A stretch of 64,000 nt of DNA from Clostridia bacterium (lineage in GTDB: Bacteria; CBDUZB01; JAGLHV01), in the NCBI GenBank assembly GCA_030595925.1, contig JAUVLC010000001.1, positions 1,476 to 65,475 on the forward strand, given 5' to 3'. The notes beneath the pieces are model-generated. The model was given only the letters and a program-made list of their open reading frames with translations. It had not been told where the DNA came from and ran no database searches. The position numbers were made by a program, and so were the translations under genes. Positions 14,150-49,740 of the stretch are shown in pieces. The stretch's first letter is position 1, and each line of letters opens with the position of its first letter.

Positions 14150-14355
14150 GGGTCTGCTGAAAAACCCAGCAGTCCCTGATTTCACAGATTAAAAAGCAGA
14201 TTACACAGATTAAAACTCAGACGACAAAATTGATGTACTTTTTTCAATATCTGTGTAATCAAGGCTTACTGAAAAATTTATATGCAGTCATTTACATATT
14301 TATTCCATCGATATTTTGTCCGCCTGAGGCAAATTCGCATTTTTTCAGTAAGCCC
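14150..14355 (+). repeat. MITE-like ~200-bp dispersed element, copy A
   Basis: GGGTCTGCTGAAAAACCCAGCAG...GGCTTACTGAAAAAT...ATTTTTCAGTAAGCC with internal inverted repeats; two further copies at 34585-34768 (inverted) and 49449-49740. Confidence 0.6.
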
Positions 14356-14552
14356 TACTTTAATGAAATTAGATATCCTTTTTCCCTCTTCTCTATAACC
14401 AATTTATCTTCCCTGGCAAGCCATCCGATACCCATACAAATTAAAGTATTGGAAATTTTTAAATGAGTTTTTAAATTTAAGACTGTGACGTCACCATTCT
14501 GATTTAAATATTCCCATATTCTACCAGCAACTTCTCCTGCCAACTCAACCAT
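14355..14552 (-). CDS. small winged-helix protein (DUF2582-like)
   Basis: 65 aa; pattern resembles the ~60-aa winged-HTH DUF2582 family; low certainty. Confidence 0.35.
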   Translation of the reverse strand: MVELAGEVAGRIWEYLNQNGDVTVLNLKTHLKISNTLICMGIGWLAREDKLVIEKREKGYLISLK

Positions 14553-14594
14553 TTATTAAACTCCTTTTTTTTATTGCATATTTTAAAAAAAGGG

Positions 14595-14632
14595 TGGAAG
14601 TTTCGTTCCACCCTTTTTTTAAAATATTAAAC
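14595..14632. terminator. bidirectional rho-independent terminator
   Basis: AAAAAAAGGGTGGAA-gtttcg-TTCCACCCTTTTTTT: an 8-bp GC-containing stem flanked by an A-run and a T-run. Confidence 0.6.
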
Positions 14633-14637
14633 CATTT

Positions 14638-14736
14638 TTACTTTTTTTTCTTTTTTACTACTTTCTTCTTTGCAACTTTCTTCTTTACCACTTTCTTCTT
14701 TGCAGGTTTCTTTTTCGCTTTTTTCTTAACCACCAT
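14638..14736 (-). CDS. possible 32-aa lysine-rich small basic protein (histone-H1/Hc-like tail)
   Basis: MVVKKKAKKKPAKKKVVKKKVAKKKVVKKKKK; an RBS GAGGTGG lies 7 nt upstream and the terminator at 14595-14632 lies immediately downstream; below the ORF-track size cut-off. Confidence 0.3.
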   Translation of the reverse strand: MVVKKKAKKKPAKKKVVKKKVAKKKVVKKKKK

Positions 14737-14915
14737 TCTTTTACCACCTCTTTTCTTTTTAAAAATTAAGTGCTTACATTTTAATTATATACCCCAAAAA
14801 ATATTTCTGTCAAGAAAAAAATTCATTTTTAATTGTTTTTTTTATTTATTTTTTAAACAAAAAAAAATAAATAAAACTTAAAAATAAAAATTCCGACGTC
14901 AAATTTCATTTAATT

Positions 14916-48000: not shown

Positions 48001-48117
48001 ACCCGGATCAGTCGGATTATGATTTGTCCACTGGGGACAATATTTGGGAATAAGTCTTATTGCCTCTTCTACAATTTGTTTGTGTGTTCTATCATCTAAA
48101 TTGGGCTTGGGTATCAT
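45097..48117 (-). CDS. baseplate J-like protein (gp6/P2 gpJ family), ~1000 aa
   Basis: N-terminus ...CPQWTNHNPTDPGITLIELFSWMMEMVIYRLNKVPEKTYLTLLELMGVNLSPPQPA and C-terminus ...NVAAGNITVIKGTIPFISGVINYYPAEGGADMETVEEAKIRAPHIFKNRYRAVTADDYEW are Baseplate_J hallmarks; overlaps the gp25-like gene. Confidence 0.8.
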   Translation of the reverse strand: MIPKPNLDDRTHKQIVEEAIRLIPKYCPQWTNHNPTDPGITLIELFSWMMEMVIYRLNKVPEKTYLTLLELMGVNLSPPQPAKTLVTFQLAEGANHGQLINKGTQVATTQTGDNKAIVFETEKDLHVLNCKLVKCISMDRDKIADNSHFVGVNEGKKRGFSVFQGKSQIDRFIYIGDDSLINLADSNVLHLLLRNSLPLEEKLHSMLEWEYWNDKHWINITPELKEDEIVFKGPFTGINKCKVDEVESIWLRGKLMEIPQDKKQTLIETVETKILIGGEGVVPDICYSNNANLIYTPVDLSKDFYPFVGEPKYNDAFYMAGGDVFSKEGATIEVKIKLQETSVVEQPQASEELTLSWEYWNGKQWKEIGLTSGEGVKKEKGIFSFVDETNAFTQTGVVKFKHPPNLKKCEVNGQENFWLRVRINTGDFGVGGRYVQDSLGHWVWSFDRPLRPPLLESINLKYNIKPCAPKHCFTFNDYRFKNHSEMIRNNLVDFMQNNKVKSWQPFEVVKDLNPACYFGFDKGFPQENIQIYFVMEGEGVLSNFLTDKDSRDKKIGASLIWEYWNGEIWDNLVVNDYTRSFFQSGVVEFRGPRDFKIRKEFGKELYWLRVRLEMGSFTRVPEIKNILLNSVVSLSSTTIKNEILGSSDGMPEQSFTFLRGPVLFKPQIWLREKEMPMEQERKIIFEEEGQDAFYKEEATEEGGFWVRWHQVENFFESGSGSRHYLVDYVNNKIVFGDGTTGLIPPEGRNNIKAASYQIGGGTEGNVAAGNITVIKGTIPFISGVINYYPAEGGADMETVEEAKIRAPHIFKNRYRAVTADDYEWIAKEASSHVARAHCIPTKEKEGEVTVVIVSKEDRNDGKSNGKLVPTRELLRRVREHLDERRLITTMLKVIAPKYVDISVKINVVLKSTVTEIQATKKEIEKRLRTFLHPLNGGPDKKGWPFGMPLGKSDIHNVVEKVENIYYISDIEIKDENKGVVVDKAILGEECLFHPTFIEIVERVSEF

Positions 48118-48511
48118 GTTCACTCCTTTCTAAGTAAAATGGATATACCAGATTAAAAAAATTATTGGTAGATATTACTTTGTATTCAATATTTATCAAA
48201 AGCTTATGGTTATAATCTTTATCCGCATCGGCTTCGACTTTAATTAATTCAATACGCGGTTCCCATTTGGCTAAAGCCTCTTCTATATAATGAATAACAA
48301 GTCCGTGAGTATGGGTATTATTGGGAGCAAAAACCAAATCATTTATTCCGCAACCAAAATCAGGCCGCATTATTCTCTCCCCTTTAGATGTCCCTAAAAT
48401 AATACGAATGGATTGCTCAATGTTTGCCTCCTGACCGGATAATTTTACTCCTCCCTGCCTATCTATTTCCATAGACAAATTCCATCCTACCCCTAAAAAA
48501 TCTCTGTTCAT
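48092..48511 (-). CDS. gp25/GPW-like baseplate wedge protein
   Basis: 139 aa; IEQSIRIILGTSKGERIMRPDFGCGINDLVF is the gp25-family core motif; AGGAGG RBS. Confidence 0.85.
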   Translation of the reverse strand: MNRDFLGVGWNLSMEIDRQGGVKLSGQEANIEQSIRIILGTSKGERIMRPDFGCGINDLVFAPNNTHTHGLVIHYIEEALAKWEPRIELIKVEADADKDYNHKLLINIEYKVISTNNFFNLVYPFYLERSEHDTQAQFR

Positions 48512-48605
48512 TTAATTATGACCTCCTTTGTGAGCTTAAAGCTAAGAGCTAAGAGCAAAGAACCATTTGCAATCTAAACCTGCATCCTGAATCTTGTATC
48601 CTGTA

Positions 48606-49433
48606 TCATGCATCCTGTATCTTTCTTATCTCTTCTTTTCCTACTTCTCCGTTTTCATTAAGACGATTTAACTTTTGTAATTCCTTCACTGCACGAACTG
48701 TTGACTCACCATAAATTCCATCAGTCCACACCTGATAGCCCTTTTGGGCAAGAAGATATTGTAATCTCACCACATCGTATCCTTTGTCCCCTTTTTTCAG
48801 ATTTCTTGTTGCAAGATAAACTTGTAAAGGAATTCGTTCACCTGAAAAATCTTTCTCTATTACTAAGTTTTTGCGGATTTTTCGCGGTAACCCTTTCACT
48901 TTTTTTATTTCAAGTTTAGTGGGTTTATTCCCTGACATTGCTAACCTGGTGGAAACCCTAAACTTGAGTCCACTTCTTAAATCACTGTCATAAAGAAGAG
49001 TAGTTCCGCTCTTTATCTTCAATTTTATCTTAGTCCACCGCTTGCAAACAAATTTCTTTTTTTTCGGTGATTTATAAACTAATGCCCCGGTATCGGTCTT
49101 ATCTATAGCAAAAACCATTTTCCCTTTAGAAACAGTTTTATCTATCGGGACATTGGATATTACCCGACCATTTTCAGTAACTTTAATTATCTGAGCTGAT
49201 ATCTCTGCTTCTGCTTGTCCATCTGCTAACAAATACACAATAGGAATCCCCCATGTAGATTTTAATTCTTTCATTTCATCGGAATTAAACAATATCTCCA
49301 TATCCCGGGCACAAAAACCTACCTCTGCTTCTCCTGCTCTTCCCTGTATGGGACGAACTGAAAGCCTGATGGCATACTTATTCCGGTCGGTAGATTTCTC
49401 TCTATTGAATAATAATTTAAACAATTTCAGCAT
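48606..49433 (-). CDS. protein with a C-terminal peptidoglycan-binding (PG_binding_1) domain
   Basis: C-terminal GDKGYDVVRLQYLLAQKGYQVWTDGIYGESTVRAVKELQ; ATG at 49433 with a GAGG RBS (the track start at 49445 is TTG). Confidence 0.55.
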   Translation of the reverse strand: MLKLFKLLFNREKSTDRNKYAIRLSVRPIQGRAGEAEVGFCARDMEILFNSDEMKELKSTWGIPIVYLLADGQAEAEISAQIIKVTENGRVISNVPIDKTVSKGKMVFAIDKTDTGALVYKSPKKKKFVCKRWTKIKLKIKSGTTLLYDSDLRSGLKFRVSTRLAMSGNKPTKLEIKKVKGLPRKIRKNLVIEKDFSGERIPLQVYLATRNLKKGDKGYDVVRLQYLLAQKGYQVWTDGIYGESTVRAVKELQKLNRLNENGEVGKEEIRKIQDA

Positions 49434-49448
49434 ATCAAACCTCAATTA

Positions 49449-49740
49449 GGGTCTGTTGAAAAACCCATCAGTCCCTGATTTCACAGATTAGAAACCAGAT
49501 TACACAGATTAAAACTCGAACGACAAAATCGGTATAATTTGTTCAATATCTGTATAATCAAGGCTTACTGAAAAATTTATATGCAATCAAAAGTGCCCTG
49601 TCTGCGTGCGGACACGCACAGGCAGGAAGGTTTTTGGGTGATTTTGCACAAATTTCGTGCACTTTTAACCACATTTTCGCAGTCATTTGCATATTTATTC
49701 CGTCGATATTTTACATTTGTTTGCATTTTTCAATAAACCT
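49449..49740 (+). repeat. MITE-like element, copy C (with a ~95-bp internal insertion containing a GC-rich hairpin)
   Basis: Aligns with 14150-14355 over GGGTCTGTTGAAAAACCCATCAG...GGCTTACTGAAAAAT...; the insertion is CCCTGTCTGCGTGCGGACACGCACAGGCAGG. Confidence 0.6.

Follow-up and report, generated by a model that had tools for sequence, protein, structure and literature searches.

We found that a 64-kb stretch of contig JAUVLC010000001.1 (here called the window; 33% GC), from an uncultured bacterium with type IX secretion sorting domains, holds three copies of a dispersed noncoding element of about 206 bp whose flanking sequences are mutually unrelated. We regard it as very probable that this element is a nonautonomous DNA transposon, namely, a miniature inverted-repeat transposable element (MITE), because it has terminal inverted repeats, is bordered by 7-bp target duplications, and is missing from the orthologous sites of relatives. 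The element is shorter than about 600 bp and noncoding, and it combines terminal repeats and a duplication of fixed length with dispersed copies and empty sites. All copy counts given below refer to the window.

Copy 1 (14150..14355, plus strand) is full length at 206 bp and lies between the stop codon and the terminator of a DUF2582 gene. Copy 2 (34584..34768, minus strand) measures 185 bp and has a 20-nt internal deletion within its second hairpin (H2, described below), and copy 3 (49449..49740, plus strand), located between a PorV-like gene and a PG_binding gene, measures 292 bp, including a GC-rich nested insert of 89 nt in its right module (49590..49678, plus strand). A 30-mer of the element occurred exactly three times in the window versus zero occurrences expected, GATTACACAGATTA-type boxes were found 12 times versus 0.8 expected, and an nhmmer profile built from the copies retrieved exactly three full copies. 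When the copies were aligned, identity began at TAGGGTCTG and ended at CAGTAAGCC, with differing sequence beyond; self-BLAST, run with the tandem 7-bp arrays of the window masked, showed no flank similarity common to the copies, an identity of 91% over 144 nt between copies 1 and 3 and of about 80% between copies 1 and 2, and no second copy of the 89-nt insert elsewhere in the window. An earlier note on this DNA had reported three copies at these sites, and the alignment, 30-mer, profile, and self-BLAST results agree with it. It had also described copy 2 as inverted with a deletion and copy 3 as carrying a GC-rich hairpin insertion; both features are present, with the start of copy 2 at 34584 instead of 34585, its deletion at 20 nt instead of about 30, and the insertion at 89 nt instead of about 95. 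Its further statement that two copies end exactly at the stop codons of genes in the "island" (the second part of the window, from about 24.5 kb onward) applies in part. Two copies do touch stops, one of them in the core region, where the TAG stop of gene 14355..14552 takes its G from copy 1, and the other in the island, where copy 2 starts 2 nt past the TGA stop of the tail-fiber-like gene 34771..35616. Copy 3 touches no stop codon and ends 15 nt upstream of the PG_binding ATG (49433).

The insertion is most clearly visible at copy 1, which is flanked on the left by uppP/bacA and on the right by the DUF2582 winged-helix gene, both on the minus strand. Two GTDB genomes retained this gene order (L007 and L008, with UppP/BacA 89% and 81% identical, respectively). 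In both, the element is absent, and the TAA stop of the DUF2582 gene is followed 18 to 19 nt on by a conserved terminator hairpin; the gap in their alignment with the window corresponds to the element plus one 7-mer. That 7-mer, TACTTTA, stands on both sides of copy 1 (14143..14149 and 14356..14362) and only once in the relatives, so that the gene strand reads TTAAAGTA[GGGC...ACCC]TAAAGTAAATT, an exact 7-bp duplication. Where the window has TAG, the relatives carry TAA: the insertion cut the TAA stop after TA, and the first G of the element, joined on the minus strand to the TA of the right duplication, remade the stop of 14355..14552 as TAG. The native intrinsic terminator of the DUF2582 gene (14091..14125, minus strand), which is conserved in both relatives, lies outside the element and was pushed 213 nt downstream by the insertion.

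At copy 3, two relatives (L022 and L023, PG_binding 86% identical) have the TAA stop of the PorV-like gene, 13 nt, and then the ATG of the next gene, and the window has a spacer of 555 nt that holds copy 3 and a second insert of about 229 nt. Copy 3 is flanked by TCAATTA (49442-49448) and TCACTTA (49740-46), a match at 6 of 7 positions if the terminal base of the element is missing. The nested insert within copy 3 has its own 7-bp duplication, GCAATCA and GCAGTCA (6/7), and copies 1 and 2 hold this 7-mer once. For flanks compared at a fixed offset, the chance frequency is 4 to 8 × 10−4 for a match of 7/7 and about 5 × 10−3 for a match of at least 6/7. As to the neighboring second insert (49748-49976), it adjoins copy 3, is absent from the 13-nt spacer of the relative, and is bounded left and right by TTAAGTG. 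The GC-rich hairpins in it, of the CCCCTCAAGGGGAG type, recur at 59258-59297 and 44762-44807.

These comparisons also bear on whether the copies could be a small-RNA gene family or the remains of a larger segmental duplication. The sequence is indeed conserved and structured, with 80 to 91% identity between copies. However, similarity stops exactly at the inverted repeats, the flanks are unrelated, presence and absence relative to the relatives are exact to the base, and no promoter and terminator specific to the element frame it. In a search of Rfam at the gathering score, the only match in the window was a tRNA, with none for the element, and a permissive search of the copy 1 region gave a best score of 32 bits versus a gathering score of 59. 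We therefore give this explanation next to no credence. The earlier note had named membership in a larger duplicated region as the finding that would speak against a discrete element, and the sharp loss of similarity at the element ends shows that the element is discrete. Nor does it encode a conserved product: the open reading frames (ORFs) in it are nonconserved ORFs of 20 to 38 amino acids or spill over from outside. A small conserved ORF was considered and rejected, as the 20-amino-acid ORFs of copies 1 and 2 differ at many residues and lack a ribosome-binding site.

Several observations weigh against the MITE interpretation. Copy 2 has no recognizable 7-bp duplication; its flanks, AATGATA and TAAGTTA, match at 4 of 7 positions with a 1-nt shift of the boundary and otherwise at 2 of 7. 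The relatives have no ortholog of the C-terminal half of the gene next to copy 2, and hence no empty site could be obtained for this copy. The duplication at copy 3 is 6/7 and conditional on the missing terminal base. Thus, the target duplications proposed as a check by the earlier note were found clean at copy 1 (7/7), nearly so at copy 3, and not at copy 2. Only three copies and one distant relative were at hand, and neither the window nor scans of GTDB representative genomes, viral contigs, and metagenomes yielded an autonomous partner, that is, a longer element with the same ends. An exact 21-mer of the element had no match in all 185,579 GTDB representative genomes, so the family is either rare or poorly assembled. 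Finally, the flanking TA could be the element's own, giving ends of TAGGG...CCCTA and a 3-bp duplication; the matches of the outer bases beyond this TA at copy 1 and at the related element described below make such a model less likely.

Beside copy 2, and just downstream of it on the minus strand (34502-34569), we observed a perfect consensus sigma-70 promoter, with TTGACA at 34569-34564, a 17-nt spacer, and TATAAT at 34546-34541, followed by a perfect 36-nt palindrome (34502-34537). This promoter is directed at the 3' end of a MazE/ParE-like gene pair on the plus strand.

The target sites collected (TACTTTA, TCAATTA, TAAAATA, TTAATTA|G, and ATAATTA|G) are all AT rich, end in TA, and lie at, or a few bases from, a stop codon. 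If the element prefers targets ending in TA and disruptive insertions are selected against, its association with stop codons needs no further explanation. In the mechanism that we propose, a transposase encoded elsewhere in the genome would bind the element ends in trans and make 7-bp staggered cuts at AT-rich targets ending in TA, and repair of these cuts would duplicate the 7 bp. A DDE-type transposase is suggested by the terminal repeats together with the fixed length of the duplication. Mobilization in trans is also indicated by a scan of 60 ORFs of the window against Pfam, among which there was no transposase, RAYT, or reverse transcriptase.

The outermost 15-mers of the element form an imperfect inverted repeat: the left one is GGGTCTGCTGAAAAA, and the right one, read as its reverse complement, is GGGCTTACTGAAAAA. 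For these ends, GGGYYTRCTGAAAAA serves as a search key. The ends matched at 13 to 14 of 20 positions in every copy, and a terminal match of at least 12/15 at that spacing occurs by chance in the window with a frequency of 1 × 10−4. In copy 1, the left repeat lies in hairpin H1 (14150..14176), which folds on itself with a 10-bp stem containing one mismatch (arms GGGTCTGCTG/CAGCAGTCCC). It is followed by two direct GATT(T/A)CACAGATTA boxes (14178..14212), whose start-to-start distance of 21 nt is equal in all three copies. Hairpin H2 (14199..14260) forms between the second GATTACACAGAT box and a third one in inverted orientation, ATCTGTGTAATC (14247-14260). The right module, hairpin H3 (14262..14355), arises from the pairing of AGGCTTACTGAAAAA (14262-14276), a near-perfect third copy of the terminal repeat inside the element, with TTTTTTCAGTAAGCCC, the right terminal repeat (14341-14355). 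All of these features lie on the plus strand. Since the terminal repeats are joined by this internal copy, the right module is itself a repeat-bounded unit, and the phased GATTACACAGATTA boxes with their inverted third copy may be subterminal binding sites for the transposase. When folded as DNA or as RNA of either strand, copy 1 formed the three hairpins (z, −5.3 to −5.8). The GGGTCTGCTGAAAAACCCAGCAG hairpin, the two direct repeats, and the long-range inverted repeat GGCTTACTGAAAAAT...ATTTTTCAGTAAGCC reported in the earlier note are thus all present; the inverted third box and the inverted relation between the two outermost 15-mers are features that it did not mention.

Hairpin ends of this kind raise the question of whether an HUH (Y1) transposase, rather than a DDE enzyme, mobilized the element in single-stranded form, in the manner of REP/REPIN-RAYT or IS200/IS605-derived palindromic elements. 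The hairpin at the left end is preceded by TAG in all copies and relatives, which loosely recalls the GTAG beside REP hairpins; the right module is a long hairpin like that of a REPIN; and a position behind genes is typical of REPs. HUH elements, however, leave no duplication, and 7-bp duplications were seen at copy 1, copy 3, the nested insert, and the related metagenomic element (L002). Moreover, the TAG at 53890, in front of one of the related modules, is already there in the relative's empty site and is hence target sequence and not part of the element, and the scanned ORFs of the window included no Y1 transposase. On this evidence we consider movement by an HUH enzyme highly improbable.

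A scan of metagenomes with the 21-mer gave two contigs, BBPD01001397 (L001) and BBPG01001971 (L002). In L002, an 18-nt inverted repeat of 94% identity, TAGGGCTTACTGAAAAAT, bounds about 316 nt of quite different sequence, and this repeat pair is the same pair that bounds H3, the right module of the window element. The junctions read TAAAATA|GGGC...GCCT|TAAAATA, a 7/7 duplication, and the upstream ORF again ends in a TAG built from TA and the G of the element. The reconstructed empty site consists of TAA, a ribosome-binding site, and ATG, a tight operon junction; before insertion, the junctions at copy 3 and at the L002 element were 13 to 14 nt long. At least two different cargoes, in different organisms, are therefore carried between the same ends and with duplications of the same length, as expected for ends that are recognized by one type of transposase.

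Relatives of the left module stand alone in the window, on the minus strand. In the first (53825..53892; profile E value = 0.006), the hairpin, whose stem differs, is overlapped by a TAG stop and precedes two GATTAC(A/G)CAGATT boxes, and the second (27160..27232; profile E value = 0.014), placed 6 nt past the stop of gene 27236..27667, has a different-stem hairpin and two GATTACACAGAT boxes. On the gene strand, both thus consist of a 9- to 10-bp hairpin and then two GATTAC(A/G)CAGAT(T) boxes 22 to 23 nt apart. A solitary H1-like hairpin, GGGACTGTTGAAAAAAATCATCAGTCCC (26268..26297, minus strand), comes directly after the stop of 26299..26499. The module at 53825 is an insertion, too, given that the orthologous TAG stop in L022 runs directly into heptamer repeats. 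The 5' arms of these relatives resemble the terminal repeat at 11 of 15 positions, counted by eye, and we read the relatives as truncated members of the family or members of a subfamily. From this, we infer that the composite element arose when a left module was joined to a right-module MITE, the two now moving as one by means of the outer ends. The same modules lend themselves to a different account, in which the left module (a variable hairpin at the stop plus two phased GATTACACAGATT boxes) is a portable cis-element for protein binding or RNA processing that this lineage repeatedly installed behind injection-system genes and, via the composite MITE, behind a core gene, or in which the family is moved by an uncharacterized transposase aimed at stop codons, at their AT-rich TA|A or TA|G, with the terminal G of the element restoring the stop. 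We judge this account unlikely.

The hairpins and their positions also led us to weigh the possibility that the element is a functional cis-acting RNA module (a 3' untranslated region [3' UTR] stabilizer, an RNase site, or a terminator) that is kept by selection and whose repeat nature is secondary. In line with this, the three hairpins are strong on either strand (z, about −5.3 to −5.8), stop codons directly adjoin copies 1 and 2 as well as the relatives at 53825 and 27160, and hairpins with different stems hold the same position ahead of the boxes. In addition, the three substitutions in the H2 and H3 stems of copy 3 stay paired as G-U only in the RNA of the minus strand, which is the strand of the flanking genes; this is a weak hint of tolerance at the RNA level, as three events are inseparable from mutation bias. 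Against it, the orientation is inconsistent, with copies 1 and 3 antisense to the flanking minus-strand genes and copy 2 sense; one H1 pair is broken in copy 3; no Rfam family matches; and at these loci the relatives lack the element. No U-tract accompanies the hairpins, and a terminator scan found only the native terminator (14125..14091), downstream of copy 1. Copy 3 and the L002 element lie between a stop codon and the ribosome-binding site of the next gene, where a terminator would be harmful: the operon genes downstream of copy 3, encoding gp25-like and baseplate J proteins, still require expression, and we therefore infer that transcription reads through. A selected RNA module is accordingly quite improbable in our view, and the exaptation of a MITE as such a module would not contradict the transposon explanation. 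Of the two roles suggested in the earlier note, insertion of a discrete MITE-like element beside gene ends is borne out by the terminal repeats, the 7-bp duplications, and the empty sites, and a 3'-UTR or terminator module is not supported, given the orientation, the missing U-tract, the native terminator, and the tight operon junctions. In 3' UTRs and operon junctions, the element thus appears to be tolerated as a passenger and not to act as a terminator.

Three further identities were tried and rejected. A template or variable repeat of a diversity-generating retroelement was considered since copy 2 follows a tail-fiber-like gene; there is no reverse transcriptase, the copies are noncoding, and their differences are not adenine specific. 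An integron attC site was dismissed because there is no integron integrase: the only recombinase match, a tyrosine recombinase with Phage_integrase domains (5003..5890), lies among the housekeeping genes of the core region, and we read it as a housekeeping XerC/D-type gene. The left end of the element also resembles an IS6/IS26-like end, GGTTCTGTTGCAAAGTT; duplications in that family are 8 bp long, and a model with this length gives a poorer fit here.

Copy 1 is identical in a contig of the same species (L005), and its site was occupied by the element in every sample in which it was found. Logan contigs with an identical BacA, from three samples, begin inside H1; a JGI contig (L020) ends inside copy 2; and another Logan contig begins inside copy 3. 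Contigs are expected to break in this way inside a multicopy repeat of the genome, and the element explains the fragmentation of short-read assemblies of this organism at these points. Among viral contigs, a scan with a 25-mer gave no match, and a scan with a 16-mer of the terminal repeat gave 69 matches, all of them single chance matches in coding sequence without an inverted partner. A profile search of about 38 kb from close relatives also gave no match, and a literature search with the element sequences returned only a chance match to a primer. The family looks lineage restricted, with the reservation that metagenome-assembled genomes lose repeats.

The copies lie in two regions. The first (1 to 24 kb) contains housekeeping genes, including alaS, recA, ftsK, uppP, pnp, ribF, rbfA, infB, nusA, and rimP. 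From about 24.5 kb onward (24500-64000), the window holds an extracellular contractile-injection-system (phage-tail-like) locus with genes for Baseplate_J, gp25, Tail_P2_I, PAAR, two Phage_base_V spikes, GPD, CIS_tube, two eCIS_core proteins, and an AAA ATPase, along with a PorV-like porin and proteins with type IX secretion tails. The opposite strand of the locus carries toxin-antitoxin genes (MazE/ParE, 33706-34275; a PIN gene, 44412-44747). The tail-fiber-like gene next to copy 2 (34771-35616) has a paralog at 42723-43661; their N-terminal parts share 84% DNA identity over 249 nt, and their C-terminal halves differ. The homologs in the relatives likewise have a conserved N terminus and a swapped C terminus.

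Other repeats were seen in the window as well. Tandem 7-bp repeats of two kinds, with up to 62 units, fill nearly every intergenic region of the injection locus (25380-63925; for example, 25390-25696, 26519-26950, 36777-36947, 38695-39127, and 62645-62829). On the gene (minus) strand, CAGGATA-like units follow the stops and GCTCTTA-like units run up to the next ribosome-binding site, and a AATTACAGATTAATCTGTAATT palindrome often separates the two arrays. There are none in the housekeeping region (1 to 25 kb), and in L022 the arrays at orthologous places are shorter. This architecture is a stranger feature of the window than the MITE, and we offer no explanation for it. The locus also contains an intergenic repeat family of about 125 nt with 89 to 95% identity (43727-43856, 44827-44951, and 57603-57754), and shorter shared motifs (25 to 60 nt) occur at 29597, 31330, 32732, 34345, and 38616. 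Within genes, we noted a 393-bp in-frame tandem duplication of 89% identity in 40222..41955 (41092-41875) and in-frame NHL-repeat units of 183 to 195 bp in 51716..53698 (52490-53596). Upstream of the DUF2582 gene in L008, a small ORF (5466-5592) consists of tandem KKKV-type repeats in 15-bp units, to which a 15/30-bp repeat in the window (14647-14727) is comparable.

Taken together, the results document a MITE family from an uncultured lineage about which little is known, and they define its ends, the length of its duplication, its target preference, and its empty sites. Recent insertions are marked by the element both in an operon of the contractile-injection system and behind a core gene, and the TAA stop that was split and rebuilt as TAG with the G of the element is an example of harmless settling at gene ends. 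The GGGYYTRCTGAAAAA ends and the 7-bp duplication provide a key for finding the autonomous transposon.

Among known systems, the element resembles REP and REPIN-RAYT elements in that its hairpins come directly after stop codons and are arranged as inverted pairs; REPINs, in contrast, have no target duplication and need a RAYT, whereas the present element has 7-bp duplications and the window has no RAYT. BOX, RUP, ERIC, and BIME elements are likewise mosaics of short hairpin modules in 3' UTRs and operon junctions, most of them without a clear signature of terminal repeats and duplication, and their sequences differ from that of the element. The likeness extends to submodules that stand alone, here at 27160, 53825, and 26268, and the difference lies in the insertion of the element, which is visible from empty sites.

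Insertion sequences of the IS1016 subgroup of IS1595 make 7- to 9-bp AT-rich duplications and have GGGGCTG... ends, those of ISApl4 being GGGGCTGTACTAGA (PMC12561309). The element is similar in the length and AT richness of its duplication, in part in the GGG(G)CTG start of its ends, and in its very small size. The match to ISApl4 is partial, at 6 of the first 10 end bases, with element ends of GGGTCTG and GGGCTTA, and the link consists solely of the duplication length and the end motif; neither in the window nor in the fetched loci did we find a transposase of the IS1595 type. Among the groups of insertion sequences, the IS1016 subgroup fits best and might be the source of the transposase, which we put forward as a lead and not as a claim of membership; as we found no autonomous partner sharing the ends, the transposase family is a guess.

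The element also has parallels with bacterial MITEs in general, for example the Correia (NEMIS) elements of Neisseria, which are likewise small, noncoding, and AT rich, with terminal repeats and short target duplications, and which share with our element the intergenic dispersal beside genes, the cotranscription (presumed for our element), the long hairpins, and the breaks in short-read assemblies. The Correia elements and ours have no sequence similarity, and they differ in that Correia elements have a TA duplication and 26-bp terminal repeats versus the 7-bp duplication and imperfect 15-bp repeats found here, as well as in the three hairpin modules and the internal third copy of the terminal repeat that characterize the present element. 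The family is new, although the element is of an ordinary, known kind, and the general understanding of MITEs is unchanged by these results.

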